A stretch of DNA of 64,000 nt from Candidatus Pacebacteria bacterium CG_4_10_14_3_um_filter_34_15 (GTDB taxonomy: Bacteria; Patescibacteriota; Microgenomatia; UBA1400; PJMF01). This document shows, in pieces, positions 5,273 to 56,918 of the stretch (positions within the stretch are counted from its first letter, which is position 1; every line of letters begins with the position of its first letter). The position numbers were made by a program, and so were the translations under genes. Location: positions 15,034 through 79,033 of the forward strand of contig PFJN01000016.1 of NCBI GenBank assembly GCA_002783105.1, given 5' to 3'. Below the pieces are notes generated by a model. It was given only the letters and a program-made list of their open reading frames with translations, did no database searches and was not told the origin of the DNA.

Positions 5273-6040
5273 ATGTCCCAAAATTTAAAATTTACTACAG
5301 CAATTAGTGGCAATACTTCTCAGGGTTTAGTTTTAAGAAATCAAAAGTTGGAGGGCTTAATCAAAGAAGCTGATTTTGTAAGCACATTTTTTCTTTCTTT
5401 AGTTGGCCGAAAGCCAAAAGATGCAGAAAAAACAATTTTGAACGCTATTCTAGTTTCTGCGATCGATCACGGAATTAATCCTGCAAGTGGATTTGTACCT
5501 CGCGTAGTAGCTTCTTCTGGGGGAGATGTTCTTTCAGCCATGGCTGCTTCATTGTTAGCAATAGGGCCATATCACGGTGGAGCTATTTCGGCTGCTATGA
5601 ATATTTTTAAAACTATCAATGAAGAAGGTTCTGACATCGAAAAAGCTTGCAATAATTTAGTTGATTCATATAGTGTTGATAAAAAAAGAATTCCAGGATT
5701 TGGTCATCCGGTTTATAAAGATTTCGATCCTAGAGCAAAAGAATTATTTGATTTAGCAAGAAAAAATGACATGGATATTCAGTTTATGAATATCGCCAAA
5801 CAACTCGAACATTCATTGGATGACAAGCTGAGTTACAAAATAAAGAAAAAATTAATTTTGAACATTGATGGAGCAATTGCTGCCTTGCTATTGACCATAG
5901 GAATTGACTCAATGGCTGGTAATGCTATTTTTGGTTTGGCAAGAGTAGCGGGGAGTATTGCTCACATTGTTGAAGAGCAAAAATCTGATAAAGGTGTCAG
6001 GCGTCTTACAGATGAAGATGTGGAGTATATATCAACATAA
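5273..6040 (+). CDS. citrate synthase family protein, short form (citryl-CoA lyase-like)
   Basis: 255 aa containing GFGHPVYKDFDPRAKEL, the citrate synthase GFGHRVY signature with the catalytic His. The PYHGGAISAAMN region matches the CoA-binding region. It is too short for a full citrate synthase. Confidence 0.6.
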   Translation: MSQNLKFTTAISGNTSQGLVLRNQKLEGLIKEADFVSTFFLSLVGRKPKDAEKTILNAILVSAIDHGINPASGFVPRVVASSGGDVLSAMAASLLAIGPYHGGAISAAMNIFKTINEEGSDIEKACNNLVDSYSVDKKRIPGFGHPVYKDFDPRAKELFDLARKNDMDIQFMNIAKQLEHSLDDKLSYKIKKKLILNIDGAIAALLLTIGIDSMAGNAIFGLARVAGSIAHIVEEQKSDKGVRRLTDEDVEYIST

Positions 6041-6777: not shown

Positions 6778-7356
6778 ATGGAATATCCAAAATCATCTCA
6801 GCCAATGCCCAAAACTGCAAAGCAAGTTTTTAAGGGAAAAATTTTTGAAGTTTGGCAGTGGCAGCAAACCATGTTTGATGGCTCAGTTAAAACTTTTGAA
6901 AAAGCAAAAAGAAATTCCTCAGTTGGAATTTTTCCAGTTACAGCAGATGGAAAAATTATTGTCACATCACAAGCACAGCCTTTAATGAAGCCATTTATTA
7001 GTTTAATAGGTGGTGTTGTTGATGAGGGTGAGTCTCCATTAAAGGCCGCTGAGCGAGAACTCATGGAAGAAGCAGGCTTTCAAGCAAAAAGTTTAGATCT
7101 TTGGTTTTCTGTTCAACCAGTCACAAAAATTGAGTGGCCAATATTTATATATATTGCAACAGGTTGTAAAAAAGTTGCCGAGCAAACTTTGGACTCTGGT
7201 GAAAAAATTAAATTAAAGTATGTCGATTGGGATGAATTTCTCGAAATAGTTGTTCAGGATGATTTTAGAGATTATGAAATTGCTTTGAGGTTTTTAAAAG
7301 CGATGCAGAGAGAAGGCGAGTTAGAAAAAATTAAGCAGCTTATTTTTTCGCAATAG
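6778..7356 (+). CDS. NUDIX hydrolase
   Basis: The Nudix box GGVVDEGESPLKAAERELMEEAGF matches the consensus GX5EX7REUXEEXGU. Confidence 0.75.
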   Translation: MEYPKSSQPMPKTAKQVFKGKIFEVWQWQQTMFDGSVKTFEKAKRNSSVGIFPVTADGKIIVTSQAQPLMKPFISLIGGVVDEGESPLKAAERELMEEAGFQAKSLDLWFSVQPVTKIEWPIFIYIATGCKKVAEQTLDSGEKIKLKYVDWDEFLEIVVQDDFRDYEIALRFLKAMQREGELEKIKQLIFSQ

Positions 7357-8323
7357 CTTCTATAGCTAATTTTATTTCATTTTCATGTGTATGTGCCAAA
7401 AAGCCAATAAAAATTAAAATATTTTCTGCTATTGAGCCAATCCCAGGAGTATTTTCTTGATTTTTTAGCAACACAAAATCAGTTCTTTTTCCTACGGAGT
7501 TCATTAAATAAAATTTATCATCGGTTAGTTTGACAAACCCCTTAATTCTAAAGATATTTTTTGGAGTTTCATTAATCGTTTTTTCTAATTCATCTTTGTT
7601 AAATTTCCCAAGTGGCTTGAGATTAAAGGTTTGAATTTGATCTTCTTGAATGTGGTCTGTGTTTGGTTGACCAGCATTTGGATTTTCAACTTCTGCTAGC
7701 AAAGTGGGCAAATCTTTTGAGTTAAGGCCAAAAACAAGTTTTGATGAGATTTTTCCGTTCGGTGCCTCAATAATTGGTGAGTGAGCATTCAGTTCACGAA
7801 CATAACCAACCACTGCTTTTTTTTTGGCAATATCGACTAGCTCAATTTTATTAAAAATTATTAAATCGGTAAATTTGGTTTGGTTTTGGGCGGTGACGCT
7901 AAGATCTTTGTAGCCTTCAAAATTTACTACATCAATTATTCCAATTACTCCATCACGAGCTAAATTTGGATGCAAAGAAATCATCAGAGCAAGTGCTGAG
8001 GGATCGGCGGCTCCAGAAGCTTCAATAATTATTTTGTCTGGTGAAAAAGTTTCGACAATTTCGTTAATTGAGCTAATGAACGGTCCAACTAAAGTGCAAC
8101 ATATACAACCATTTAAAAGCTCTTTGGTTTTTATGCCCTTACCTTCTAAAACTTTGCCGTCTATGTCAGTATCACCAATTTCATTTTTAATATAAATGAC
8201 TTGCTGGTTATTTGCTTGGAGTTCATCTATCAAATTTGAAATAATTGTTGTTTTTCCAGATCCTAAAAAACCTGAAAAGACAGTGGTGGGGATTTTGTTT
8301 TTTTGTATTTTTAGTTCATTCAT
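7340..8323 (-). CDS. COG0523/CobW-family GTPase (putative metallochaperone)
   Basis: It has a P-loop, GFLGSGKTT, and a GCICCT metal-binding motif. Confidence 0.75.
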   Translation of the reverse strand: MNELKIQKNKIPTTVFSGFLGSGKTTIISNLIDELQANNQQVIYIKNEIGDTDIDGKVLEGKGIKTKELLNGCICCTLVGPFISSINEIVETFSPDKIIIEASGAADPSALALMISLHPNLARDGVIGIIDVVNFEGYKDLSVTAQNQTKFTDLIIFNKIELVDIAKKKAVVGYVRELNAHSPIIEAPNGKISSKLVFGLNSKDLPTLLAEVENPNAGQPNTDHIQEDQIQTFNLKPLGKFNKDELEKTINETPKNIFRIKGFVKLTDDKFYLMNSVGKRTDFVLLKNQENTPGIGSIAENILIFIGFLAHTHENEIKLAIEAIAKK

Positions 8324-10083: not shown

Positions 10084-10515
10084 ATGAATCTTAAAGACCA
10101 GCTTGTTGAAGATATGAAGCAAGCCATGAGGAGTAAGGATACAGTTAAGCTTGGTGTAATCAGGTTCTTACGTTCAGAAATTAAAAATTTTGAAATTGAT
10201 AATGGCGAACAAGACGACAAAGGAGTAGTTAAAATTATTGCTTCTCAGACCAAAAAAATTAAGGATGCTCTTGTAGATTTCAGAGCTGCGGGTAGAGAAG
10301 ATTTGGTTTCTGCAGAAGAAGCAAAAGTTGCTATTCTGGAGGCATACTTGCCCCAACAAATGAGTGACGAAGACCTCAGAATCGTTGTTGCAAAAATTGT
10401 TGATGAAACTGAAGAAAAGAATATGGGCAAACTGATTGGAGCTGCTGTTAAGGCAGTTGAAGGCAAAGCTGATGGTGGCAGAGTCTCTGCTATGGTCAAA
10501 GAAAAATTGCAGTAA
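10084..10515 (+). CDS. GatB/YqeY domain protein
   Basis: The translation MNLKDQLVEDMKQAMRSKDTVKLGVIRFLRSEIKN.. matches the YqeY family pattern. An AGGAG RBS precedes the start. Confidence 0.8.
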   Translation: MNLKDQLVEDMKQAMRSKDTVKLGVIRFLRSEIKNFEIDNGEQDDKGVVKIIASQTKKIKDALVDFRAAGREDLVSAEEAKVAILEAYLPQQMSDEDLRIVVAKIVDETEEKNMGKLIGAAVKAVEGKADGGRVSAMVKEKLQ

Positions 10516-10538
10516 TATCAGTTGTACCTAAGTTAACT

Positions 10539-11183
10539 ATGAGAACTAAAACCATTGGCGAAGCTCTAAAAGAAGAAAGAGTTAGTCATCGCCTTAGGAT
10601 CGAAGATCTTTCCAAAAAAACTAGAATTCGGATCAACTATTTAGATGCCCTTGAAGAAAATCGGTTTTCTGAGTTGCCCTCAACAACATTTGTTAAGGGT
10701 TACATCAAGACGTACGCAAAGATTTTTGGATTTGATTACAAGCCTCTAATCGCAATGCTTAGACGTGATTATAAGGAAAGTGCTAAGGGCAGGTTGGTTC
10801 CTAGAGAATTTATAAAACCAATTTTTAAAAGAAGATCTTCTCGTACTTCGATTACCTTGGTTGTAGTTATATTAATCAGTATTTTTTCAAGTTTGGTTGG
10901 TTATATCGGTTTTCAATGGCACAACCTAAACAAACCACCAGAGCTTATAGTTTCAAAACCCGGAGAGCAAGATATAGTTTCTTCTAAAGTACTAATTGAG
11001 GGCAAAACAGTTCCTGATGCAATTCTAGTTGTGAATGAACAACCAGTTTCACTACAACCATCTGGAGAGTTTAAAACAGAAATCTTAATTCCAAATGAGG
11101 GAATTGCAATAATCACTATTGAAGCAAAGGATAGAAGAGGCAAGAGTAATACAGTTCAACGATCTGTGAACGTGCAGTTTTAA
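10539..11183 (+). CDS. RodZ-like HTH (XRE-type) membrane protein
   Basis: It has an N-terminal HTH (IGEALKEERVSHRLRIEDLSKKTRIRINYLDALEENRF), a single TM helix and a C-terminal extracytoplasmic domain. Confidence 0.55.
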   Translation: MRTKTIGEALKEERVSHRLRIEDLSKKTRIRINYLDALEENRFSELPSTTFVKGYIKTYAKIFGFDYKPLIAMLRRDYKESAKGRLVPREFIKPIFKRRSSRTSITLVVVILISIFSSLVGYIGFQWHNLNKPPELIVSKPGEQDIVSSKVLIEGKTVPDAILVVNEQPVSLQPSGEFKTEILIPNEGIAIITIEAKDRRGKSNTVQRSVNVQF

Positions 11184-11240
11184 AGCAAACATCGAGAGAA
11201 TGTTGTATGATGAAGTTAGTTAAAGTAAAAAAAGGATAAC

Positions 11241-11513
11241 ATGGATATTTTACCAATAGTTTTTGCAGTCGTATTAGTCGTTCTTACAATCGTACTAAGC
11301 GTGGTTGGAGTTCAGGTGATTATGGTGCTTGTTGAAATCAAGAGAACCTTGAGAAAAGTTAATGCCACTCTCGATGTAGTTGAGGACAAAATGCATGCGA
11401 TTACCAGCCCATTTCAAAATCTTGGCGGCGCATTATCTGGAATTAAAACAGGTATGCAGTTCTTTGAAGCATTTACAGTATGGCTAAGCAAAGGCAAAAA
11501 AAAGGATGAATGA
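11241..11513 (+). CDS. small membrane protein, DUF948-like
   Basis: The 90-aa protein has an N-terminal TM helix followed by an amphipathic region. It is paired with a downstream YtxH-like gene. Confidence 0.4.
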   Translation: MDILPIVFAVVLVVLTIVLSVVGVQVIMVLVEIKRTLRKVNATLDVVEDKMHAITSPFQNLGGALSGIKTGMQFFEAFTVWLSKGKKKDE

Positions 11514-11913
11514 CAATGAGCATAATAATTTTTCGTTAGGTTTTGTAGTTGGAGCACTTGTTGGCGTTGCTGGATATTTTTTTACTAGAACGCAAGAAGG
11601 TAAAGAAATTAAAAAAAAAATTACTAGTGAATGGTCTACAATTCGAAAAAAGCTTGAGGACGAGGGAGTGATTCCAGAAGATGGCAAAGATTTTTCGGAC
11701 ATTATTGTAAGCGTAAGAACGAAGCTTTATGAATTTTTAGGTGAAGAAGGTAAATTCCGCAGGAAGAAAGGTTGGCCTGGGTCATTGCGTAGCAAGATAG
11801 AGTACCCTGGGGTAAAGCCAGGAAGAAAAATCACTGGAGCGAGTTCAAAATTAAGTGAGGTTTCAACAAAATCTCTAGCCAAAAAAAGAAAGCGAATGTT
11901 TAAGGGAATTTAA
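11506..11913 (+). CDS. YtxH-like small membrane-associated protein
   Basis: It has a GFVVGALVGVAGYFF N-terminal helix and a charged C-terminus. It overlaps the upstream gene by 8 nt. Confidence 0.4.
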   Translation: MNDNEHNNFSLGFVVGALVGVAGYFFTRTQEGKEIKKKITSEWSTIRKKLEDEGVIPEDGKDFSDIIVSVRTKLYEFLGEEGKFRRKKGWPGSLRSKIEYPGVKPGRKITGASSKLSEVSTKSLAKKRKRMFKGI

Positions 11914-12155
11914 TCAACTTTAAACTAAAAAACTATTTTCCGAGTGCCATCATAACCATCTGTTTGAAGGCATCGAGAGTGGATTTTAATGCTATGGCAA
12001 TCCATCTAAAAATAAATTTTAGTGTTCCATTAGCTATATTAGTTGATCTTTTTTTGAATTCAGGAGAGTTTACGAAGCTTTGAAATTCTGGTGTTTGTGC
12101 ATTTTGCATTTGCATAAGTAGTCGCTAATTATAATGCGAGTTTGGTGATAAGGCA

Positions 12156-14069
12156 ATGATTTGTAATAATCTTAAGATAGATTATAATTCCAGTTATATG
12201 AAACCAGATGAACTTCGAAACCTATACTTAAGTTTTTTCAAAAATAATGGTCATGAAATTGTGCCATCGGCTTCAATTGTGCCAGAAAATGATCCAACTA
12301 CGCTTTTTACTGGATCTGGTATGCAACCAATGATGGAGTATCTGCTCGGTGCAAAACATCCTAAAGGAACTAGAATTGTTGATAGTCAGAAATGTTTTAG
12401 ATCGCAGGATATTGAAGAAGTTGGTGATAATAGACATATAACTTTTTTCGAAATGTTGGGAAATTGGTCTTTTGGGGATTATTTCAAGCAAGAACAGCTT
12501 GAGTGGCTTTTTAAGTTTTTAACTAGAGACATAGATTTGGATCCAAACAAGCTATTCATCACGGTTTTTAGAGGAAATGACAAGCTTAAAATTGGTAAAG
12601 ATGTCAAGTCTGTAGAGATCTGGAAGAAACTATTCTTACAAGTTGGTATAGAGGCAAAAGATATCGATTTTTCAGAAAAGACAGGTCTTCAAGATGGCAG
12701 AATTTTTTATTACGATGAAACCAAAAACTGGTGGTCTAGAGCAGGTATTCCTGATAAGATGCCGGCAGGTGAGCCAGGTGGTCCAGATAGCGAAGTGTTC
12801 TATGATTTTGGTGCAGACAAAAACATTCACGAAAATTCTCAACTTAAAGATGAAGTTTGCCATGTGAACTGTGATTGCGGAAGATTTTTAGAGATTGGCA
12901 ATAATGTTTTCATGCAGTATCAGAAACAAGCTGACGGTGGATTCAAGGAACTTTCGCAAAAGAATGTTGATTTTGGTGGAGGTTTTGAAAGAATTTTAGC
13001 CGCAATCAATGACACTGCCGATGTTTTTCAAACTGCTCTTTTTATTCCAATTATTAGACATTTAGAAAAAATTAGTGACCAAAAATATGAGTCTTCTTCC
13101 AACTCTAAAAGATCTTTTAGAGTTATTGCCGATCATATGCGCGCTGCAGTAATGTTAGCGGCTGACGGCGTTTATCCCTCCAACAAAGAACAAGGTTATT
13201 TTGCCAGAAGACTAGTTAGAAGATCAATTAGATATGCAAAAATGATTGGTGTTAACCAACTATTTGTTGCCGATCTAATTCCGGTAATCGTTGAAATTTA
13301 TCAAAACTCATATCCTGATGTAAGCCAAAAATTAGTCAAAATTCAGAGTGTTTTGGTTCAAGAAGAAAATAAATTTGCCAAAACTATAGAAAAAGGCTTA
13401 CGAGAGCTTGAAAAATATCAAGAAATGACTCCACCAGTTGCTATTGATGGTGCGATTGCATTTAGATTATATGAAACTCATGGATTTCCTTTTGAACTTA
13501 CTCAAGAAATTGCTCATGAAAAGGGTCAAAAAATTAGTCTTGAGGAATTTGAAAATGCTAAGAGGGCTCATGCTGTCATGTCCAGAGACGCTTCTTCAGA
13601 TAAATTCAAAGGTGGCTTACAAGATAGTAGCGTCCAAACCACAAAATATCACACGGCTACTCATTTACTTCATGCCGCTTTGCGAAAGATATTAGGCAGG
13701 CACGTCCAACAAAAAGGATCAAATATAACTGTAGACAGACTAAGATTTGATTTCTCACATCCACAAGCACTTTCTCAGAATGAAAAAATCCAAGTTCAAG
13801 ATCAGGTCAACGAATGGATAGATGCTGCTTTGCCAGTCAAAGTCGAACATTTGAGAAAAAGTGACGCTTTGGAATCTGGAGCAATTGCATTTTTTGTTGA
13901 AAAATACCCTGACGAAGTTACGATTTATACGATTGGAGATGGAGATGCCTGGATTTCAAAAGAATTTTGTGGTGGCCCCCACGTCAAAAATACATCTGAA
14001 ATAGGCAAGATAGAAATCTTTAAAGAGAAGGCAGCTTCTGCCGGAGTTCGAAGAGTTTATCTTAAATAA
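12156..14069 (+). CDS. alaS: alanine--tRNA ligase, short form lacking C-terminal C-Ala domain
   Basis: The N-terminus reads MKPDELRNLYLSFFKNNGHEIVPSASIVP (ATG at 12198), which aligns to canonical AlaRS starts. An editing-domain HxxxH motif, HTATHLLHAALR, is present. An upstream in-frame ATG at 12156 has AAGG just 5'. Confidence 0.9.
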   Translation: MICNNLKIDYNSSYMKPDELRNLYLSFFKNNGHEIVPSASIVPENDPTTLFTGSGMQPMMEYLLGAKHPKGTRIVDSQKCFRSQDIEEVGDNRHITFFEMLGNWSFGDYFKQEQLEWLFKFLTRDIDLDPNKLFITVFRGNDKLKIGKDVKSVEIWKKLFLQVGIEAKDIDFSEKTGLQDGRIFYYDETKNWWSRAGIPDKMPAGEPGGPDSEVFYDFGADKNIHENSQLKDEVCHVNCDCGRFLEIGNNVFMQYQKQADGGFKELSQKNVDFGGGFERILAAINDTADVFQTALFIPIIRHLEKISDQKYESSSNSKRSFRVIADHMRAAVMLAADGVYPSNKEQGYFARRLVRRSIRYAKMIGVNQLFVADLIPVIVEIYQNSYPDVSQKLVKIQSVLVQEENKFAKTIEKGLRELEKYQEMTPPVAIDGAIAFRLYETHGFPFELTQEIAHEKGQKISLEEFENAKRAHAVMSRDASSDKFKGGLQDSSVQTTKYHTATHLLHAALRKILGRHVQQKGSNITVDRLRFDFSHPQALSQNEKIQVQDQVNEWIDAALPVKVEHLRKSDALESGAIAFFVEKYPDEVTIYTIGDGDAWISKEFCGGPHVKNTSEIGKIEIFKEKAASAGVRRVYLK

Positions 14070-47094: not shown

Positions 47095-47610
47095 ATGGCA
47101 TTAAAATTAAATAAAAAGAAAAAAATCATCAAAAAAATTGTTAAAAAATCTAAACCAGTTAAAAAGCTTGTGAAGAGAATTGAGTCTGAAACTTCTTCAA
47201 ACTTAACAGTTCCAACCGGAAAATACTACGAAGCAGTTGGTAGAAGAAAAGTTGCAACCGCTAGAGTTAGGCTTTATGAGTCTGAAGGCGATTTTATCAT
47301 AAATGACAAGCTTGTAGGTAAGTATTTTGACACCATCAGTGATGCAAAATTAAGATATAACAATCCATTTGAATTAACTGGCACAAAAGGCAAGTTTTCA
47401 GTTATTGCTAAAGTTTCAGGATCTGGATCTTCTTCACAACTAGATGCAGTTGTTCATGGCATTGCTAGAGCATTAGTTAAATATGATGAATCATTCAGAT
47501 TATTGCTTAAACCAGCAGGACTAATTACTAGAGATGATAGAATGAAAGAAACTAGAAAAATTGGTATGGGTGGTAAAGCAAGAAGAAAGAGACAATCTCC
47601 AAAGCGTTAA
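47095..47610 (+). CDS. rpsI: 30S ribosomal protein S9 with lysine-rich N-terminal extension
   Basis: A roughly 40-aa K-rich leader is followed by the S9 core (..YYEAVGRRKVATARVRL.. ..GGKARRKRQSPKR). Confidence 0.9.
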   Translation: MALKLNKKKKIIKKIVKKSKPVKKLVKRIESETSSNLTVPTGKYYEAVGRRKVATARVRLYESEGDFIINDKLVGKYFDTISDAKLRYNNPFELTGTKGKFSVIAKVSGSGSSSQLDAVVHGIARALVKYDESFRLLLKPAGLITRDDRMKETRKIGMGGKARRKRQSPKR

Positions 47611-47615
47611 ACTTT

Positions 47616-48407
47616 TTAACTTCCAACTCCTGAATATTTTTTCAAAGCCCAGTTCCAAAATTTTAAACTTGCAATTAAACTTCCAACTCCTACAAGAATT
47701 GTTACAAAAATACTAAATGAGGGTTTGACACCTAATAAAACTTCGGTAGGAATTGTGATCATCATTCCAATGGGGATAATAAAGAAAAGCACAAACCGTA
47801 ATGGTTGCATGTACATTCCAATTGGAAATCTGCCCATTGAACTTAAGTCACGATAAATCCAAATAATTCCTTCAGTTTCAGTTGTAAGAATACCAATAGA
47901 TAAAATTAGGATATTTATGGCGGTAATGATTAATAAACCATTTGTTACGAGAATTAAATACCATACAAGTGATAACCAAGTTACAGAAATATCAAGATTA
48001 TTGAAAATATAAAAACTTACAGCTAATGAAGGAATCATAAAAATAGCATCATTTATATCAGGTTTACCGGTTAAGGCTCTAAACAAAGGATTGATAGGTT
48101 TAGTTAAATAAGCATCAAAAGATCCTAATCGAACTTCATTACTAAATACATACGTACCTCTATAAAAAATTTGACTAATTAAATCTATAAATTGATATGT
48201 GAGAAAAAAAACAATCATTTGAGCTGAAGTATATCCTGCAAAACTACTGACTGTATTTTTAATTAAAAACAAAAAAATTAATGAAAATGAAAAACGCAGT
48301 ACTTTGCCGATCATGAATAAAATGTTTGAGCCCCTATTTACAAGATTCTCTTGAATGGCGTTAAAGCCAAAAATTTTCCAAACATTAAAATATGTTTTTA
48401 GTCTCAT
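47616..48407 (-). CDS. ABC-2 family transporter permease (paralog 4 of 4)
   Basis: It is 263 aa with 6 predicted TM helices and the motif EVRLGSFDAYLTKPINPLF, shared in variant form by the other three permeases. Confidence 0.7.
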   Translation of the reverse strand: MRLKTYFNVWKIFGFNAIQENLVNRGSNILFMIGKVLRFSFSLIFLFLIKNTVSSFAGYTSAQMIVFFLTYQFIDLISQIFYRGTYVFSNEVRLGSFDAYLTKPINPLFRALTGKPDINDAIFMIPSLAVSFYIFNNLDISVTWLSLVWYLILVTNGLLIITAINILILSIGILTTETEGIIWIYRDLSSMGRFPIGMYMQPLRFVLFFIIPIGMMITIPTEVLLGVKPSFSIFVTILVGVGSLIASLKFWNWALKKYSGVGS

Positions 48408-48413
48408 ATTAAT

Positions 48414-49205
48414 TTAGATACCTACTGATTCATAAGATTTCAATCCCTTTTTCCAAATTTTATTTGTGATTGTTCCCAAAATAAATATCCAAAAAACTAG
48501 AATAACTGTATGTTTAAGAATGTCTTGGGAATTAAGTCGATTTAGAAATAATTGAATTTGAACAAAAGATAGGTATGGAAAAGGCGTAAGGTAAATTATT
48601 TTCTGGAGCATAATTGGTAAAATATCTAATGGAAAAAGTTTTCCAGCTGTAAAATCTAGAATCATGAAGAATAAAAACTTTGGTCCCCATACTTGAGGGC
48701 TCCAAAAACCCAAACTACCGAAAAGAAGTGTGATAATAAAATTTAAAATTAAACCTCCAAATGACCATATTAAAAATAACAAGAATAATTTCAAATCAGG
48801 AAATACAATAATTGGTTTGAAAATTAAAAATAAAAATAGAGATTCCAAAAACAAGAAAAGTAGATTCTTAATTTTGTCCGCAATTTCTTGAATTGCGAAT
48901 AGACCAAATAAATTAATTGGTTTCAATAAATAATTACTAATTTCTCCAGAGTATAGTCTACTTGCTAGGCCATTAAGAGAAGAAGCGATGATCATACTTT
49001 GCAAGAAGGCAACTAAGAATATATAAGTAATCATGCTCTCTTTAGAATAGCCAAAAGCACTGTTGTTTGAGGTAAAAATCACTGTCCACACAGTTAGAGA
49101 CATAAGGCTGGATAAGAATGACCTAAGACGCCATGTGAAGAGACTTAACCTATATACTAGACTGTTTTGCCAGGTTATTTTAAGGAGTGTTAAATATTTG
49201 GTCAT
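48414..49205 (-). CDS. ABC-2 family transporter permease (paralog 3 of 4)
   Basis: It is 263 aa, multi-TM, and carries SGEISNYLLKPINLF. Confidence 0.7.
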   Translation of the reverse strand: MTKYLTLLKITWQNSLVYRLSLFTWRLRSFLSSLMSLTVWTVIFTSNNSAFGYSKESMITYIFLVAFLQSMIIASSLNGLASRLYSGEISNYLLKPINLFGLFAIQEIADKIKNLLFLFLESLFLFLIFKPIIVFPDLKLFLLFLIWSFGGLILNFIITLLFGSLGFWSPQVWGPKFLFFMILDFTAGKLFPLDILPIMLQKIIYLTPFPYLSFVQIQLFLNRLNSQDILKHTVILVFWIFILGTITNKIWKKGLKSYESVGI

Positions 49206-50189
49206 TTAATGGATTTTCTTAGCGCCAAAGATCTCTCGAATCACAACTTCTATTGGAACTTCTTCAATATTCAAATCATTAACTTTAAATTGATTTAAAA
49301 TTTTAGAAGCTATCTTAGTTGCTTCTTTGCGAGGCACTATCAAAGTTGCTTGGTTATTTTTGAATGATTTTACAGTTCCAAATTGTTCGAGATCATTTTT
49401 TGTTATTGAGTTTTCAAGTGTCAGTGAAAGAATTTTATTTCGAGCATATTTATTAATAATGTCAGCTAATTTGCCATCATAAACTTTATGACCTTTATCG
49501 ATAATTATTACTCTTTCACAAAGCTCTTTGACATCGCCCATGTAGTGGCTAGTTAAAATGATTGTTGCTCCAAATTCTTTATTGTAAGTTTTAATGAAAT
49601 CTCTTAAGGTTTTTTGCATGACGACGTCTAAACCAATAGTTGGTTCATCTAAAAATAAAACTTTTGGATTGTGAAGCAAGGCCGCAATAATCTCACACTT
49701 CATTCTTTGACCTAGCGACAGTTTTCTAACCTGAATTCTTAAAATATCTTCAACATCTAAAATTTTTGATAGCTTTGCTAATGTTTCATCAAAAATTTTA
49801 TCCGGAATTTCGTAAATTGCTTTATTTAGGTGAAAGGATTCAATTGCTGGTAAATCCCACCAAAGTTGGTTCTTTTGTCCCATGACCAAGGCAAATTGTT
49901 TTTGAAATTCAGGTTTTCTATCCCATGGATTAAATTCTAAAACAGTAGTTTTTCCATCTGTTGGGTATAAAAGACCAGAGAGCATTTTTAGTGTGGTGGT
50001 TTTTCCAGCCCCATTTTGACCGATAAAACCGACAATCTCACCTTCGGCAATTTCAAAACTAACATCATCAACTGCTTTTACAGTTTCATAACTTCTTTTC
50101 CAAAGAGATTTAATGGAGCCCCAAAGTCCAGGTTCTTTTTTATAGACTTTGAAATATTTTTTTAGATTGCTGACTTTAATAGTGATCAT
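49206..50189 (-). CDS. ABC transporter ATP-binding protein
   Basis: It has Walker A GQNGAGKTT, an LSLGQRMK ABC signature variant, and Walker B LFLDEPTIGLD. Confidence 0.85.
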   Translation of the reverse strand: MITIKVSNLKKYFKVYKKEPGLWGSIKSLWKRSYETVKAVDDVSFEIAEGEIVGFIGQNGAGKTTTLKMLSGLLYPTDGKTTVLEFNPWDRKPEFQKQFALVMGQKNQLWWDLPAIESFHLNKAIYEIPDKIFDETLAKLSKILDVEDILRIQVRKLSLGQRMKCEIIAALLHNPKVLFLDEPTIGLDVVMQKTLRDFIKTYNKEFGATIILTSHYMGDVKELCERVIIIDKGHKVYDGKLADIINKYARNKILSLTLENSITKNDLEQFGTVKSFKNNQATLIVPRKEATKIASKILNQFKVNDLNIEEVPIEVVIREIFGAKKIH

Positions 50190-50221
50190 TTATGCCTTTC
50201 AAGCTATCTTTTTATTATACC

Positions 50222-51010
50222 TTAATTTCCAACACTTGAGTATTTTTTAATTGAAAATTTATAAAATAAAATTGTTAAATATGCAAAAACAGAGGTGAAC
50301 ATAAAAAAATAAAAAATATCAAAGATATTATTTCTGTTTAAAAGTATTTCACTGGGTAAAGTTGTAACTAATCCTAGTGGAAAAATAAAGGTAATTATAA
50401 ATCCTGTTAATCCCGTGTAAATTCTCGCTGGCATTTGATAGACACTTCTAAACCCAGGCATTATTTCATTAATATTGTTTAATTTTTCTGCCCAAAAAGT
50501 CAGTGTGGCCAGAAGGAACCAGCCACTATATATAAATATTATAGAAATTATAAAAACCAATGTGGCTAAAAGTATTTGATAAATTGTAACTTCAATTTGC
50601 ATTTTGATTGCAGTACTAATTAAAACTATAAGGCCGATAAAAAATCTTGGAACATTATGATAGGTTGCTTCTTGAGTTAAAATTATAAAAATATTGTTAA
50701 CTGGTAAGAGCAAAAGATTACTTAAGCTACCTTGATAAATTGATTCGGTGTAGTTAACCATATTTGGATAGAATACTGACCAAGTAAAAGCGTCCAGCAT
50801 GGTAAAAAATGAAAGTAAAATGAGAACTTCATCGTAACTCCATCCAGCTATAGTTTTACTATTGCCAATGATCAAGTAATAAAAAAAATAATTGAAAGCA
50901 GTCCACATGGTTGAAACTATTAGCCAGAAGAAAAAATCACCCCGGTACTCCATCATTTTCATGAGTTGAATTTTTCTGAATTTCCAAAATAAATTCCAAT
51001 ATTTTTTCAT
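50222..51010 (-). CDS. ABC-2 family transporter permease (paralog 2 of 4)
   Basis: It is 262 aa, multi-TM, and carries QGSLSNLLLLPVNNIF. Confidence 0.7.
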   Translation of the reverse strand: MKKYWNLFWKFRKIQLMKMMEYRGDFFFWLIVSTMWTAFNYFFYYLIIGNSKTIAGWSYDEVLILLSFFTMLDAFTWSVFYPNMVNYTESIYQGSLSNLLLLPVNNIFIILTQEATYHNVPRFFIGLIVLISTAIKMQIEVTIYQILLATLVFIISIIFIYSGWFLLATLTFWAEKLNNINEIMPGFRSVYQMPARIYTGLTGFIITFIFPLGLVTTLPSEILLNRNNIFDIFYFFMFTSVFAYLTILFYKFSIKKYSSVGN

Positions 51011-51018
51011 TATTTATA

Positions 51019-51819
51019 TTATCCTCCGGCTGAGGAATATTTATACCTCGCTTTTTTCCATAAAAAATTACTAAATAAAAACATGATTGCCAAAGTAGAT
51101 GAAATAAAAATATAATCATAAGTTTGTAGCTTCATTTTCCCTTGGATAATTTGTATAGGAACATAACTTAGATATTTAAATGGCAAAAAACTAAAAATAT
51201 TTTGTAACCAAACTGGCATAAATTCAAATGGTATTGTTGAACCGCTAAATAAAGAAATAAGAATCCATTTAAAATGTTCGAGACCGCTAGATCCTTCGAA
51301 CCAAAATGTCAGTAGCACAATCCAAAGCGCAATCATTATTTGAATAGCATATGCAGCTGCTAGTAATCCTAAAAACATAAATAAATTGTTTAACTCCAAA
51401 ATAATTTTAGAAACATGGAATAGTTTTAAAGAAAATATATAAAAAAGAGTTAGGATTGGAATAGAGATTATCAAGTTGACAATTTTCCCGCCCAATTCTC
51501 TTGAAATTATTTCGTGGATGTAGGAAAACGGTCTAGTTAAAAAATAATCAATTTTACCCATTCTAATCTCTTGGGAGCGCCAGCCTTCAAAGTAAGTTGC
51601 GGTGATTCTTTGAATAAAAACTACTAATATGTAGTATTGAACGATATCTGAAAAAGAATAATTATTAATGCTTTCTTGACCTGAATAAACTGCGCCCCAT
51701 AAAAAGAATAAGACGAAGAATGGAATGACGTCTAAGAATGCATAGATTGCAATTTCTTCTCTAAATTGTAATGTTTTAATAAACATGAATTTAAAGATTA
51801 GATAATATTTCTTTAGCAT
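51019..51819 (-). CDS. ABC-2 family transporter permease (paralog 1 of 4)
   Basis: It is 266 aa, multi-TM, and carries EIRMGKIDYFLTRPFSYIHEI. Confidence 0.7.
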   Translation of the reverse strand: MLKKYYLIFKFMFIKTLQFREEIAIYAFLDVIPFFVLFFLWGAVYSGQESINNYSFSDIVQYYILVVFIQRITATYFEGWRSQEIRMGKIDYFLTRPFSYIHEIISRELGGKIVNLIISIPILTLFYIFSLKLFHVSKIILELNNLFMFLGLLAAAYAIQIMIALWIVLLTFWFEGSSGLEHFKWILISLFSGSTIPFEFMPVWLQNIFSFLPFKYLSYVPIQIIQGKMKLQTYDYIFISSTLAIMFLFSNFLWKKARYKYSSAGG

Positions 51820-51895
51820 GTTGCTATTTTAGCACCTCTGGGACGATCTACCCAATAAGAGTTTAGGTTCTATGATTAGGAGACTGTTCATTATC

Positions 51896-51924
51896 AAAAA
51901 CCCCCGCTCGAGCGGGGGTTTAAT
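51896..51924 (-). terminator. rho-independent terminator downstream of the HU gene
   Basis: A perfect palindrome, cccccgctcgagcggggg at 51901-51918, is flanked by an A-run on + (51896-51900). On the minus strand this reads as a stem followed by TTTTT. Confidence 0.75.
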
Positions 51925-51959
51925 ACTTTTATTTTAAATCTACCAAGTAGCTTTTTAGT

Positions 51960-52235
51960 TTACCAAACTTGTTTCTTTAATGGTTTGCCAACTCTGAAGT
52001 TAACAACTTTATGACCTTTGATTGTCTGTCTTTTAGATTCATTACCAAAAGGGACTACTTGTTTGTCTCCAACTTTGCTAACATAAAATGTTCCGAATCC
52101 TGAAATAACTACTTTTTCACCTTTATTAAGTGAACGGATGACTTCTTCAAACAGTGCTTCGATAGCATCTGAAGAAGCTTTTTTTGTTAAGTGAGCTTTT
52201 TTTGCAATAACAGCAACCAATTGTGATTTAGTCAT
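51960..52235 (-). CDS. HU/IHF-family DNA-binding protein
   Basis: It is 91 aa and contains ..GEKVVISGFGTFYVSKV..RQTIKGHKVVNFRVGKPLK. Confidence 0.85.
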   Translation of the reverse strand: MTKSQLVAVIAKKAHLTKKASSDAIEALFEEVIRSLNKGEKVVISGFGTFYVSKVGDKQVVPFGNESKRQTIKGHKVVNFRVGKPLKKQVW

Positions 52236-52338
52236 TTTTATTCCCTTTTAATAATTATTAATTAGCCTCATATAGAGCGACTTAGATCAATCATTATCAC
52301 TTATTTTCTTCAGCTGTCAATCTTCAAAATGTTGCAAA

Positions 52339-52713
52339 TTAAATAAAATTATATCTTCTTAAGAACGCAACACTGACTCCGAGCATGTCATAACCGATGT
52401 CTCTTAAGGTAGCATACCTCCCAGGAACCAGTGATTGATGGAATTCATCACTCACGGCATAAAGCAGGCAAATTAAAATCGGAACGTAAAGATGTTTTGT
52501 TGACGTTTCTAAGTTTGTAGTTTGGTCTACAGCCCTTTTTAAAAGTAAATAAAGGATAAAATAGACAAAGAGATGAGCAGCTTTTTTAAAAATAAAGTCA
52601 AAACCTGATTCTTGAAAGCCGGCAATTACACTTTGAGATGATAAGATAAAGATAAAGGTTGCCCAGAGAATAGGTGGTAGATAAGCGTTCAATATTTTGT
52701 TAAATTTTTTCAT
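52339..52713 (-). CDS. VanZ-like family membrane protein
   Basis: It is 124 aa with 3-4 TM helices and a VanZ-like pattern (..ILWATFIFILSSQS..KAAHLFVYFILYLLL..). Confidence 0.5.
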   Translation of the reverse strand: MKKFNKILNAYLPPILWATFIFILSSQSVIAGFQESGFDFIFKKAAHLFVYFILYLLLKRAVDQTTNLETSTKHLYVPILICLLYAVSDEFHQSLVPGRYATLRDIGYDMLGVSVAFLRRYNFI

Positions 52714-53867
52714 TTGATAAAGAATAATCCAGAACTTGCTAGCATTGCACCTCCAATTATAACACTGATTATGGCTATTTTTGGCAAACTATTGTCTTTA
52801 ACCACCACTTGTTTTGAGATGTAATTATCTGTTTTGGCCGTAGAAGATTTATCAGCATTACTGACCGAAAGTAATCCATTTATTCTTTTTAAATTTGAAA
52901 TTTTTTGGGCTGATGTACTATCTGTAATAGTTTGTTTTTTATCAACATCGAGTTTATCTTCTGGAAATAACTGTGTTGTTGAAGTTATTTTTTGTTGAGA
53001 ACTGTTACTTTCATTTGAAGTATCTATTGAAGAAATTGGGACCCCAATTGAGCACTGTCCAAAATTTAGAGTGTCTATTATATTTTTATTAGGATCAAGT
53101 AGAGTTATTGTATCACCAGAATTATTTAGAATACTATTTTTTAGATAAATGGTTATAAAAGATATACCTGGTATTTCTTTATTTGAACTAAGAAGCATTT
53201 GGTTATTTGCAGAATCTTTTAGCAACCAATTATCGAGATTTACAGCTTCATTATTTGGATTCTTTACCTTAACCCATTCCTGGTTGTTTTCTTCTGGACA
53301 TGACATGATCTCGTGTATTTTAAGCGAAGGATATTCCATTAAGGTCTCTTGGCTAATTTCTTGTGTATCTTCTATTACTATTTCTGTTTCGTTATCTTCA
53401 GTGTTAGTCGGTAGAGGATTTGGAAGTCCCTTGCTTGGAACTGATAATGCAATTAACTTTTGATTATTTTCTGTAATTAACGAAAAACTCTTTCCTTGTT
53501 CAGAGCTCGAATATTCAAACTGATCAATGGTTTCGCCAAGGCTATTTATTAATAATACGCCATCAGCTGTGTTATTGAGTTTATTGTTCTCAATTTCAAT
53601 TACTAAATAAGTGAGCGGTTTCATTTCCAATTTATCGTCAAGAATTTGATTAAATTGGAAAATAATTGATGGGGCACTGAGTTTGTCCATCAAAATCCAA
53701 CCTGATAGATCAATAATTTCTGAAGAATCATTATAAATTTCTACCCACTCTTTTTCTTCTGCATTAGGTTTTGGATAAATCTCATTTATTATTGGAGAAG
53801 CAAAAACTGGTTTAGTAAAAAATATGGTGGTAAAAATAAATAAGATGACACAGAAAATTATCTTCAT
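52710..53867 (-). CDS. secreted protein with two lamin-tail domains (LTD) and C-terminal TM anchor
   Basis: A signal peptide precedes two LTD motifs, INEIYPKPNAEEKEWVEIYNDSSEIIDLSGWIL and IHEIMSCPEENNQEWVKVKN..NLDNWLL. The C-terminus has a hydrophobic anchor, IAIISVIIGGAMLASSGLFFIK. Confidence 0.65.
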   Translation of the reverse strand: MKIIFCVILFIFTTIFFTKPVFASPIINEIYPKPNAEEKEWVEIYNDSSEIIDLSGWILMDKLSAPSIIFQFNQILDDKLEMKPLTYLVIEIENNKLNNTADGVLLINSLGETIDQFEYSSSEQGKSFSLITENNQKLIALSVPSKGLPNPLPTNTEDNETEIVIEDTQEISQETLMEYPSLKIHEIMSCPEENNQEWVKVKNPNNEAVNLDNWLLKDSANNQMLLSSNKEIPGISFITIYLKNSILNNSGDTITLLDPNKNIIDTLNFGQCSIGVPISSIDTSNESNSSQQKITSTTQLFPEDKLDVDKKQTITDSTSAQKISNLKRINGLLSVSNADKSSTAKTDNYISKQVVVKDNSLPKIAIISVIIGGAMLASSGLFFIK

Positions 53868-53922: not shown

Positions 53923-55176
53923 CTAATAAATAGTCAATCGGTCAACTGCAGTAATATTTGAAAGTGAGTGTTTGTCTGTAAATGGAATGTTATTGCCATC
54001 TGTTTCAAGAGGGTCTTTCATAATATATTTATCATTTTCTTTTTTGGTTATAACTATAAAATGATCTCCTGAACTACTTTGAGCTTTGATTCTAACAATA
54101 ACTGGTTTTCCAGAAGAGAGTTCTGAATCCAAGCAAGAGGTGTCGTAGCAAATTCTTTCTCTTAACACGCTGACTCCATTAAGTGACCAAGTATAGCCTC
54201 TAATCATATCAGCTGAGTATGGAACGAAAGGTGTTGCGCTGCCTGCAATTTGATTTGGACTGAGGGTCTTACCATAATGTGAGGTGATCATTGCTGTTGA
54301 AGTTACTAAGCATCCAACATATTTCATTGTCATGCCACTATTGCCAATTATTTGATTAGCCCAGGCGCTATCTCTTTGATTATAATAACAGCCCCAATCA
54401 TCACATTTTGTCATATTAGATAGTAATGAAATGTCTTTATTTGCGGTGTATCTTTTTATTGCATCAACTTGTTCTTTAGCTTCTTTCAACAATTTTTGAA
54501 ATTTCTGCTCATCATTTTGAGTAGCGGTAAGTAAATTTTTCTTTTCTTCCCTTTGAGCAACTAGATTATTTTGTTCAAGTTGTAATTGATATCTTTTAGT
54601 TTCAATTTCATCTTGTTTGATTGTTTTGATATCTTTCTGTTCATCATAAAAAACTTTTTGAGTTTGAGCTTTTTGCATGGCATCCGCTGTTTGTTTTCCA
54701 GCAAGACTTAAATATCGATGTTGATTAATAAATTTTGAAAGAGAGTTAGAAGTGAGCAGAATTTCTAAAGGATTTGACTGTTTTTGTTTATATTGAGTTC
54801 TAATTCTATCTACCAGCAGCGTGGCTAGTCGGTCAAGTGAAATGCTCAATCCAGAGATTCTGTCACCTAATGCCTCAATTTCTTTTTCAAGTTTGCTTAT
54901 TTCAGCTTCCCTTTGCTGAATTTGTAACTCTTGAATATTTATATTGCCATTGAAAACACTAATTGTACTGTTGAGCGTTGTTTTTTCGTTACTAATTTCT
55001 CCTAATCGATTTTCAATACAATTAATTTTTTTTTGCAGACATGAGTCGTAATCTGAACTGGTACTATCACAAGTAAAATCTTTTTCACAATCCTGAGCAT
55101 TGACTACATTCACAACTAATCCAAAGAATATATAAATGAGAAAAAGTACGACTGATAAATGTATTTTCTTGATCAT
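53923..55176 (-). CDS. secreted coiled-coil protein with C-terminal papain-like cysteine peptidase (C39-like/CHAP-like) domain; PcsB/CwlO-like putative peptidoglycan hydrolase
   Basis: A signal peptide precedes about 200 aa of heptad-rich coiled coil (..EISKLEKEIEALGDRISGLSISLDRL..). The C-domain has a catalytic-type Cys (GNSGMTMKYVGCLVTSTAM) and His (SGDHFIVI). It lies directly downstream of ftsEX. Confidence 0.6.
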   Translation of the reverse strand: MIKKIHLSVVLFLIYIFFGLVVNVVNAQDCEKDFTCDSTSSDYDSCLQKKINCIENRLGEISNEKTTLNSTISVFNGNINIQELQIQQREAEISKLEKEIEALGDRISGLSISLDRLATLLVDRIRTQYKQKQSNPLEILLTSNSLSKFINQHRYLSLAGKQTADAMQKAQTQKVFYDEQKDIKTIKQDEIETKRYQLQLEQNNLVAQREEKKNLLTATQNDEQKFQKLLKEAKEQVDAIKRYTANKDISLLSNMTKCDDWGCYYNQRDSAWANQIIGNSGMTMKYVGCLVTSTAMITSHYGKTLSPNQIAGSATPFVPYSADMIRGYTWSLNGVSVLRERICYDTSCLDSELSSGKPVIVRIKAQSSSGDHFIVITKKENDKYIMKDPLETDGNNIPFTDKHSLSNITAVDRLTIY

Positions 55177-55227: not shown

Positions 55228-56097
55228 TTAATTTCTTATTAATCTTTGAATTGCAACTAAACTTGCATATCCTCCAAGGAAAACTCCAGAAAGTATGCCT
55301 ATAGTGCCATGAATAATATAGAATTCTATAGGAATTGGAAGAAGTTTAATTTCGCCTAATACTTCATTAATAGAGGGAGTTAAGTAAAGTAATATTGAAA
55401 AAGTAACCAACCAACCAATCGTAGCGCCCACGAGTCCATAGATCATTCCTTCATACATGAACGGAATTTTTATATATCCTTTAGTTGCTCCAAGTATTCT
55501 CATTACTGTAATAGATTTTTTCTGAGCTGTAGCTTTCATTGCGATCACTATCATGATTATTAGAAAAGAAATTAAGGCTAAGATTGAAGTTGCTGAGATT
55601 CCAATAATTTCAGCTGTATTAATCCATTTTGAAAGAATGGAAACTACATCTTCTTGAAAAACTACGTCTTCCACTTGATTGAATTCATCAAAATCATTTT
55701 TTATATTAATAAGTGATTCAATGTTTCGTCCAGAGACTTCAATGCTTGCTGGCAAAATATCAGCAGTAACTAACTCGAGTAGGAGCGGATCATTTTTGTT
55801 TTCTTCTTGGTAGAGTTTTAGAGCGTCGTCTTGGGTAATTATTTTTGCTGACTCTACGTAAGGTTTTGCTCTAATCTTTTCTGCGGTTTTTTCAATATCA
55901 GTAATTGGAGTTTCTAGTTCGAAAAAAGCAATTATCTGAGGTCTGGTTTCAAAATGCTGAAGAACTTTACTTGCCCCGATAACAAAAAGTGAAAATGAAA
56001 AACCTACAAAAAATGTTACAGCAACCATGATAATTGAGGTTAAGGCCTGGTATGGAGATCTTCTAATAGTGGTTAGGGCAGTTGCTAGTGAACTCAT
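55228..56097 (-). CDS. ftsX: cell division protein FtsX (ABC permease-like)
   Basis: It is 289 aa with an N-terminal TM helix, an extracytoplasmic loop, three C-terminal TM helices, and is adjacent to ftsE. Confidence 0.8.
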   Translation of the reverse strand: MSSLATALTTIRRSPYQALTSIIMVAVTFFVGFSFSLFVIGASKVLQHFETRPQIIAFFELETPITDIEKTAEKIRAKPYVESAKIITQDDALKLYQEENKNDPLLLELVTADILPASIEVSGRNIESLINIKNDFDEFNQVEDVVFQEDVVSILSKWINTAEIIGISATSILALISFLIIMIVIAMKATAQKKSITVMRILGATKGYIKIPFMYEGMIYGLVGATIGWLVTFSILLYLTPSINEVLGEIKLLPIPIEFYIIHGTIGILSGVFLGGYASLVAIQRLIRN

Positions 56098-56105
56098 ATT
56101 CTTCT

Positions 56106-56918
56106 TTATTTTGTTTTATTCTTTTTATCTGTGTTCTTTAATTTGTAATCTTTCGTTTCTTTTAATTTTGATTTAATTTTTTTCTTATCATCCACATCTG
56201 GTTTTGATTCCACATCTGACTTGGATTTCACATCCGGTTTGGATTCTTTTTTTGGCTTAGTGTCTTTTTTGATTTTGCCTTTTTCGAGTTCAATTTGTCT
56301 AACTCCTTTGAATAACTCCATAATATCATGATCATGAGTTGCTAAGATGATGGTAGTTCCAAAAGAATTTATTTTTTGAAGTAATTTCCCAATTTCAAGA
56401 GCAGTTTCCCTATCTAGATTTCCAGTTGGTTCATCTGCAAAAATAATTGTTGGACCGGTGGATAATGCTCTAGCGATACTAATTCTTTGAGCCTCTCCGC
56501 CAGAAAGTTGTTTTGGAAATAAAAAAGCTTTGTCTGTCAGGGAAATTAGTGTCAAAAGATCAGTTACTCTTTGTTCAATTTCTTCTTGTTTTTTGCCAAT
56601 AATAGAAAGGGGGAGAGCTATATTTTCCCAAATATTTAGCTCTGGGAGCAGTTTGTAATCTTGGAAGATAACGCCAATCTTCCTTTTATGCTCGTGAATT
56701 TGCGATTGTTTGATTTCATTTATATTTTTGTCAGCAAAGAAGATATCACCCGAAGTTGCCAGATGTTCTCTTGTCAATAATTTCATGATGGTGGTTTTTC
56801 CAGATCCAGAAGGACCTGTAAGAAGGACTAATTCGCCATCATCAATGTCAAAAGAAATATCATTAACTGCGTAAGAGTCTGGTGGAAAATATTTGCTGAC
56901 TGAGGTAAATTTAATCAT
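56106..56918 (-). CDS. ftsE: cell division ATP-binding protein FtsE with lysine-rich repetitive C-terminal tail
   Basis: It has Walker A GPSGSGKTT, LSGGEAQR and Walker B IIFADEPTGNLD. The tail reads KPKKESKPDVKSKSDVESKPDVDDKKK. Confidence 0.85.
   Translation of the reverse strand: MIKFTSVSKYFPPDSYAVNDISFDIDDGELVLLTGPSGSGKTTIMKLLTREHLATSGDIFFADKNINEIKQSQIHEHKRKIGVIFQDYKLLPELNIWENIALPLSIIGKKQEEIEQRVTDLLTLISLTDKAFLFPKQLSGGEAQRISIARALSTGPTIIFADEPTGNLDRETALEIGKLLQKINSFGTTIILATHDHDIMELFKGVRQIELEKGKIKKDTKPKKESKPDVKSKSDVESKPDVDDKKKIKSKLKETKDYKLKNTDKKNKTK

Follow-up and report, generated by a model that had tools for sequence, protein, structure and literature searches.

Gene organization of the locus

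The 64,000-nucleotide stretch of Candidatus Pacebacteria bacterium CG_4_10_14_3_um_filter_34_15 analysed here (contig PFJN01000016.1; hereafter the window) carries on its minus strand, from 47616 to 51819, five head-to-tail open reading frames (ORFs) encoding a permease, a permease, an ATP-binding cassette (ABC) ATPase, a permease and a permease. The first gene encodes the 266 aa permease P1 (51019..51819) and is followed by P2 (262 aa; 50222..51010), the ATPase (327 aa; 49206..50189), P3 (263 aa; 48414..49205) and, as the final gene, P4 (263 aa; 47616..48407). Intergenic gaps in gene order are 8, 32, 0 and 6 nt, the start codon of P3 abutting the stop codon of the ATPase gene. Gene order, strand and short gaps are exactly those described in an earlier annotation made from the letters alone (the sequence-only reading). 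The long start chosen for P1 is supported by a conserved K-Y at residues 3-4 in the family alignment.

Upstream of the operon and on the same strand lies an HU gene (51960-52235). Inspection of the sequence just past its stop codon revealed a G+C-rich hairpin of 10 bp with TTTTT after it (51898..51921, minus strand), which is likely the intrinsic HU terminator and the upstream limit of the ABC operon. As the hairpin and T-run precede the leader of approximately 78 nt before P1 (51820-51897), the five genes seem to be transcribed as a separate unit. An Rfam scan of 47400-52400 returned no family at its gathering score, and sub-threshold matches (rli38, RsmY) were spurious, being produced by the HU terminator hairpin. 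No ykkC-type riboswitch for guanosine tetraphosphate (ppGpp) was found in the leader, and a ppGpp riboswitch of the kind present in some Firmicute operons of the EVE (ethyl viologen exporter) family was rejected, the leader having no Rfam match at threshold. At its downstream end the operon converges on the ribosomal protein cluster, with 5 nt between the stop codons of S9 (47608-47610) and P4 (47616-47618), as the sequence-only reading had noted. These gene ends leave no space for separate terminators, and the S9/P4 spacing is 3-60 nt at four related loci (L128, L129, L132 and L002; loci from other genomes are numbered in this way throughout).

Family assignment of the permeases and the ATPase

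All four permeases matched the Pfam profile PF06182 (ABC2_membrane_6, formerly DUF990) with scores of 84.6 bits for P1 (E-value 1.1e-23), 140.1 for P2 (1.3e-40), 73.6 for P3 (2.7e-20) and 119.9 for P4 (1.9e-34), against a gathering score of 22 bits, and each permease covered the 229-position profile essentially whole. On this profile evidence all four are assigned to PF06182/DUF990, the EVE family TCDB 3.A.1.141; the proposed membership in an ABC-2 permease family was therefore upheld, the ORFs not belonging to unrelated families.

The ATPase matched PF00005 (E-value 7e-26) and is the lone PF00005 gene of the cluster, in agreement with the single ATPase first reported. Its top NCBIfam match was the drrA subfamily TIGR01188, although the score of 200.4 bits lies under the cutoff of 312.45 and the ATPase is not placed in that subfamily. 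Walker A (GQNGAGKTT, 49995-50021), the LSLGQ signature (49707-49721) and Walker B (VLFLDE, 49644-49661) were located on the minus strand, with the H-loop at His215, and these motifs together with the Q-loop are invariant across 15 ATPase orthologs. Identity of the ATPase among relatives is 68-94%, with a mean column identity of 76%, and it carries a QKNQLWW motif common to the ATPases of canonical ATPase-permease-permease loci. Among solved nucleotide-binding domains (NBDs), the closest belong to ABCA3, ABCA4 and ABCA1. ABCA proteins are type V ABC transporters.

As expected of an EVE system, an ATPase with intact catalytic motifs is encoded beside the permeases, but the family pattern of one ATPase for a single pair of permeases is departed from, the window holding one ATPase and two pairs. 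No second EVE-type ATPase was found in the window, where the sole other ABC ATPase is FtsE, encoded beside FtsX.

Two permease types sharing a motif and a predicted fold

Comparison of the permeases by BLASTP matched P1 with P3 (24.5% identity, E-value 1e-14) and P2 with P4 (23%, 4e-15), cross-type matches being far weaker. By sequence, P1 and P3 are classed as type A and P2 and P4 as type B, and these similarities give the operon order A1-B1-ATPase-A2-B2, in which P1 to P4 are of A1, B1, A2 and B2 type, respectively. The ATPase had been described as flanked by two pairs of paralogous permeases; the flanking stands, but the neighbours are hetero-pairs (A1-B1 and A2-B2) rather than paralogs of the same type. 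In neighbour-joining (NJ) trees, one with 134 permeases and another enlarged by outgroups to 166, the midpoint root splits A from B and the positional classes A1, A2, A3, B1, B2 and B3 (A3 and B3 occur in some relatives, see below) are each monophyletic. The first permease of outgroup three-gene loci falls in A and the second in B, so that the two different subunits characteristic of the family (COG4587-like and COG3694-like) are recognized here through the A/B split of the tree and not through direct COG assignment.

Identity is 16-25% between paralog classes and 34-53% inside them. The low between-class values, 23-25% for the paralogs of this operon, indicate that the duplication or acquisition was ancient, so that the alignment and phylogeny suggested as a check on the sequence-only reading confirm its description of the permeases as related yet deeply diverged. 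Recent tandem duplication is ruled out by this paralog identity together with the monophyly of the classes over approximately 30 genomes.

A 16-position motif had also been proposed as common to the four permeases. As originally written it fits P4 alone, whereas a single copy of its core, G-x-x-[DS]-x-x-L-x-x-P, is present in every permease at homologous positions: GKIDYFLTRP in P1 (51529..51558), GSLSNLLLLP in P2 (G94 to P103; 50702..50731), GEISNYLLKP in P3 (48918..48947) and GSFDAYLTKP in P4 (48096..48125), all on the minus strand. Shuffled versions of each protein contained the core by chance in 0.3-1% of cases, and across 134 family members the conservation of its G, L and P is 95-100%.

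A Kyte-Doolittle hydropathy scan gave no clean count of six transmembrane (TM) helices and AlphaFold2 models were used instead. The P2 model (predicted local distance difference test score, pLDDT, 86.7) had as top PDB matches the Wzm chain 7k2t_B, with a template modelling score (TM-score) of 0.57-0.60, and TarG (9cfl_A); the model of P3, an A-type permease (pLDDT 73.9), matched Wzm, TarG and KpsM, and for both types these matches had a probability of 1.0 and TM-scores of 0.5-0.6. The models thus agree with the six TM helices first counted, and the A and B permeases are predicted to adopt the type V (ABC-2) six-TM fold expected of the family. In the P2 model the core motif sits between a helix at residues 59-93 and helices at 106-112 and 120-136, and alignment to this model places the motif of P1 in the cytoplasmic connector of TM2 and TM3. 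This connector is presumed to be the coupling-helix region, as in type V ABC permeases, a placement read from the fold. No PDB entry was related by sequence to the permeases in the search made, the DUF990/EVE family being without a solved structure.

Relatives carry one, two or three permease pairs at the same locus

Scanning GTDB with a B1 profile, each species represented by one genome, yielded 36 loci, whose ORFs were typed against the proteins of the window. All but one (35/36) were from Patescibacteria, with names such as Woesebacteria, Pacebacteria and Amesbacteria, the remaining locus being from Eremiobacterota. Half of the loci (18/36) have the five-gene order found here and another three (L024, L031 and L032) are variants of it in which one member is decayed or missing, while contig ends made six uninformative. 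A seven-gene order, A1-B1-A3-B3-ATPase-A2-B2, was complete in six of the 36 and truncated by the contig in two more; this version, with six PF06182 permeases and one ATPase, is found at L023, L034, L035, L036, L038, L039 and L131 (for example L131:1663-7600), and A3 and B3 form deep clades of their own. A single ATPase is present in all five- and seven-gene loci found. At one seven-gene locus (L034), the A1/B1 and A2/B2 pairs contain spacers measuring 0.47 and 1.25 kb (5492-5962 and 10245-11496). Many of the Patescibacteria records, which are metagenome-assembled genomes (MAGs), bear the title 'Pseudomonadales bacterium' (isolate HK-STAS-PATE-15 being one example; L010, L012, L013, L015, L016, L019 and others), an evident taxonomic mislabel.

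The five-gene arrangement is common to approximately 20 species-level genomes, which settles the question of its occurrence elsewhere raised by the sequence-only reading and indicates that it is not an artefact of assembly. Candidatus Pacebacteria bacterium CG1_02_43_31 has an annotated protein with 100% identity to P3, and homologs bear Woesebacteria, Pacebacteria and Patescibacteria names, which places the window in Microgenomatia (candidate phyla radiation, CPR). The exact sequence of P2 was found in the index of 132 collection blocks. An assembly or binning artefact, for which no supporting point was found, is vanishingly improbable, the same order recurring in independent contigs (ENA, JGI, NCBI and Logan), some of 0.5-1.2 Mb; assembly error is ruled out by these independent assemblies. 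Synteny is kept down to 39-45% P2 identity, with genes for a lamin-tail-domain (LTD) protein, a VanZ-like protein and HU on one side and the convergent S9-L13-L17-rpoA-S4-S11 genes on the other.

Five further loci were picked through A2 homologs, and are therefore unbiased towards the upstream pair. All lie in this slot, with LTD/VanZ/HU on one side and S9-L13-L17-rpoA on the other, and comprise three-gene (L128 and L130), five-gene (L129 and L132) and seven-gene (L131) versions, the canonical ATPase-A2-B2 set standing alone between HU and convergent S9 at L128:7000-9600 and L130:6978-9642. Homologs detected for P3 (A2) outnumbered those for P2 (B1) approximately tenfold (735 vs 71), and in the permease tree A2 joins the first permease, and B2 the second, of the canonical three-gene loci L048 and L053. 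Among the matches listed in an ATPase-anchored metagenome scan, all six loci with linked permeases and an EvrA-like ATPase (43-62% identical) were ATPase-permease-permease, and none of the three offering 8 kb of upstream sequence had an upstream pair; no close Microgenomatia orthologs were among these matches, the rest being generic ABC ATPases. The outgroup loci, together with published operons (PMC5417439, PMC6003355), bear out the statement that one ATPase with two permeases is the usual layout of the family. The three-, five- and seven-gene loci, the grouping with L048 and L053 and the outgroup order all point to ATPase-A2-B2 as the core of the system, with A1-B1 and A3-B3 as ATPase-less additions.

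The three-, five- and seven-gene states are interspersed in an NJ tree of ATPase sequences, a hint, taken with the single origin of each permease class, that whole pairs may have been lost repeatedly at the locus; the tree was built without bootstraps, its rooting was disturbed by the truncated L048 and no firm polarity was drawn from it. Defects of single genes were also seen: B2 is in two fragments at L024 (8567-8981), A2 is truncated and B2 absent at L031 (7730-8419), A1 is absent upstream of 5965 at L032 and A1 is frameshifted at L009 (5184-5989). Such defects look the same whether they stem from real decay or from MAG error.

The presence of one, two or three pairs beside a single ATPase gene at the same spot suggests that the ATPase probably powers several alternative channels. 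The upstream pair, and the third pair of relatives, might instead use a different ATPase encoded elsewhere, their adjacency being mere gene order. Dispersed gene sets do occur in the family: the evrA, evrB and evrC genes of Synechocystis are scattered, and at the Eremiobacterota (Baltobacteraceae) locus L046 the B permease gene (7001-7813) lies 4.6 kb from ATPase-A (542-2376). We nevertheless consider this explanation unlikely, as the extra pairs are always directly upstream, with gaps of 8-32 nt here and similarly short ones in approximately 30 relatives, and the only other ABC ATPase of the window is paired with FtsX, in genomes of about 1 Mb. L046 also adjoins photosynthetic reaction-centre (PF00124) genes at 10470-12403.

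Co-evolution of neighbouring permeases and a proposed shared ATPase

Pairwise distances in 24 genomes with all five genes were compared by partial Mantel tests in which the remaining permeases and the ATPase were controlled for. Correlations were observed for A2-B2 (partial r 0.60), A1-B1 (0.42) and A1-A2 (0.45), each with a permutation p of about 2e-4, whereas A1-B2, B1-A2 and B1-B2 gave values of 0.01-0.09 that were not significant. Neighbouring permeases therefore co-evolve and non-neighbouring A/B combinations do not, a pattern that fits cognate heterodimers of A1 with B1 and of A2 with B2. Evolution of the ATPase is slower than that of the permeases by a factor of 2.3-3.5, with a mean distance of 0.32 as against 0.75-1.12 (A1 1.12, B1 0.90, A2 0.79 and B2 0.75).

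The faster evolution of A1 and B1 relative to A2 and B2, and the occasional frameshift or loss in MAGs (L009 and L032), might be taken to mean that the upstream pair is a functionless, decaying remnant of a second EVE operon whose ATPase was lost. This is highly improbable given that A1 and B1 are intact ORFs in approximately 30 species-level genomes, down to 39% identity, that they retain the family-invariant residues Y4, R23, G94, L100, P103, P194, P211 and Y257, that they co-evolve with one another and that streamlined genomes do not keep dead genes.

Combinatorial pairing, in which any A may join any B (A1B2, A2B1 and so on) to give at least four channel types, would accord with a connector motif and fold that are common to all permeases of the family. 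It is distinctly unlikely in view of partial correlations of about 0 for A1-B2, B1-A2 and B1-B2, and of the gain and loss of pairs as adjacent A+B units.

Tight packing of the five genes in one operon, together with the A1-A2 distance correlation, could also be explained by a single larger complex of all four permeases and the ATPase, that is, by the hetero-tetrameric assembly of transmembrane domains (TMDs) raised as one of two possibilities in the sequence-only reading. Such an assembly is disfavoured and we regard it as very unlikely: relatives manage at the same locus with ATPase-A2-B2 alone or with three pairs, so that the upstream pair appears to be a dispensable addition, non-adjacent A/B pairs show no co-evolution, and the ABC structural matches (Wzm-Wzt, TarGH, KpsMT and ABCG) are all of the two-TMD class, these being machines of two TMDs and two NBDs. 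The other possibility, two alternative heterodimeric channels, is the better supported by presence and absence of pairs as units and by co-evolution of neighbours, and it is put forward here as an interpretation.

We propose, with a probability of roughly 0.6, that the locus is an EVE-family type V ABC-2 operon extended by an extra permease pair, in which one ATPase homodimer serves alternative A/B heterodimers. The ancestral core, ATPase-A2-B2, would comprise an ATPase homodimer and an A/B permease heterodimer; A1-B1 would be a second, anciently diverged heterodimer without an ATPase of its own, and A3-B3 a third in some relatives. A single ATPase dimer would dock alternately on A1B1 or A2B2 (or A3B3 in relatives) through the family-conserved cytoplasmic TM2-TM3 connector and the N-terminal interface helix, the outcome being two exporters, elsewhere one or three, that differ in specificity and share one motor. 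The cognate pairing and distinct substrates are predictions, and export direction and substrate class are suggested only by family membership and the type V fold. The broader view, that this is a modular machine of Microgenomatia in which a conserved ATPase dimer exchanges among up to three co-transcribed heterodimers gained and lost as units, we would call an even bet.

Several observations weigh against this interpretation. The search for a second EVE-type ATPase covered the 64-kb window, and one may be encoded elsewhere in the genome. Deep branches of the NJ trees are short and carry no bootstraps, and lone partners are found in the MAGs of L024, L031 and L032, although these may be assembly errors. 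The correlation between A1 and A2 means that the signal is not purely one between neighbours and, being unexplained, leaves the partial Mantel test less than clean. The coupling region and interface helix show no greater likeness between co-resident paralogs than to outgroup permeases, and the motif, being conserved family-wide, is not specific evidence for sharing of the ATPase. Finally, binding of the ATPase to both pairs is read from genomic features, namely the lone ATPase gene, the modular pairs and the co-evolution of neighbours.

Comparison with known transporters

The EVE family corresponds to DUF990, and Bacillus cereus BC0513-0515 is a three-gene ATPase-membrane-membrane operon (PMC5417439). 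EvrABC is the ethyl viologen exporter of Synechocystis PCC 6803 (Prosecka et al. 2009, as cited in PMC10469934 and PMC5417439), and this only characterized EVE member exports cationic viologens. The system described here resembles EvrABC in family and gene content, with PF06182 permeases, a single ATPase with A and B types and a DrrA/NatA/ABCA-like ATPase, but differs from it and from the other sampled members, which have one pair per ATPase, in holding two pairs (three in relatives) in one operon. Three-gene natA/COG3694/COG4587 operons are present in Firmicutes, some under ppGpp riboswitches (PMC6003355). The order ATPase-permease-permease of natA-COG4587-COG3694 and of BC0513-0515 is that of the downstream half of the operon here (ATPase-A2-B2), whereas the Firmicute operons lack an upstream permease pair, which is present here in an operon with no riboswitch detected in its leader.

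Wzm-Wzt, TarGH and KpsMT (PDB 7k2t, 9cfl and 8tsi) are like the modelled permeases in having six TM helices and an N-terminal interface helix, but have homodimeric TMDs and lipid-linked polymer substrates, and their identity to the permeases in structural alignments is 13-21%.

Sharing of an ATPase is established for importers (ECF, MsmX/MsiK and MceG), and group II energy-coupling factor (ECF) transporters share an EcfAA'T module. To our knowledge, and in the literature searched, no such sharing has been reported for a type V ABC-2 exporter, or with every module encoded in one operon. In Mycobacterium tuberculosis one ATPase, MceG, is thought to energize the YrbE1-4A/B pairs of Mce1-4 (PMC9947336), and MsmX, MsiK and MsmK are multitask ATPases of type I importers (PMC7658222, PMC5730181). 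MceG parallels the proposed system in that one ATPase serves several heterodimeric pairs, with a conserved cytosolic loop of YrbE as candidate docking site; it differs in the MlaE-like fold of its partners, which are importers with Mce substrate-binding proteins and no homology to PF06182, and in being encoded away from the permeases. MsmX, MsiK, MsmK and EcfAA'T are likewise single energizing modules for several membrane modules of differing specificity, but they belong to importers of other folds with scattered permease genes, whereas here the genes form one operon and the fold is type V and exporter-like.

If correct, the proposed reading would provide an exporter-side, single-operon counterpart of the energizer sharing of ECF, MceG or MsmX, and a genome-streamlining means by which a genome of about 1 Mb could retain several specificities of export; no principle is overturned by it. 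The 3/5/7 series at one locus is a natural comparative system for how one NBD recognizes different TMD dimers. A literature search found no description of the multi-pair architecture or of this series, the sole mention being that of evrABC homologs in Microgenomatia (PMC10469934). Among the Patescibacteria bins of that study, such homologs were seen only in Microgenomatia, and as one of the few transporters specific to this group within Patescibacteria the cluster may bear on the exports of ultra-small, host-dependent cells.

Flanking genes

Further upstream of the operon, the minus strand encodes in a row FtsE (56106-56918), FtsX (55228-56097) and a 417 aa coiled-coil protein with a Peptidase_C39_2 domain (53923-55176). 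This trio is kept in the relatives L006, L012 and L014 and may represent an FtsEX-controlled cell-wall hydrolase module. Between it and HU, at 52339-53867 on the minus strand, a 385 aa protein with two LTD stretches is encoded by a gene that overlaps the VanZ-like gene by 4 nt; by eye, both ends of the protein look hydrophobic. Nearly all related loci whose upstream genes were read have the order LTD-VanZ-HU ahead of the ABC cluster, exceptions being L128, whose gene at the LTD position gave no LTD match, and L008, where no VanZ gene was called. On the other side of the operon, S9 (47095-47610) has a Lys-rich N-terminal extension of approximately 40 aa, and L17 (46135-46665) a C-terminal tail of approximately 55 aa that is rich in Lys and Ala and contains AKKxVAKK-like repeats.

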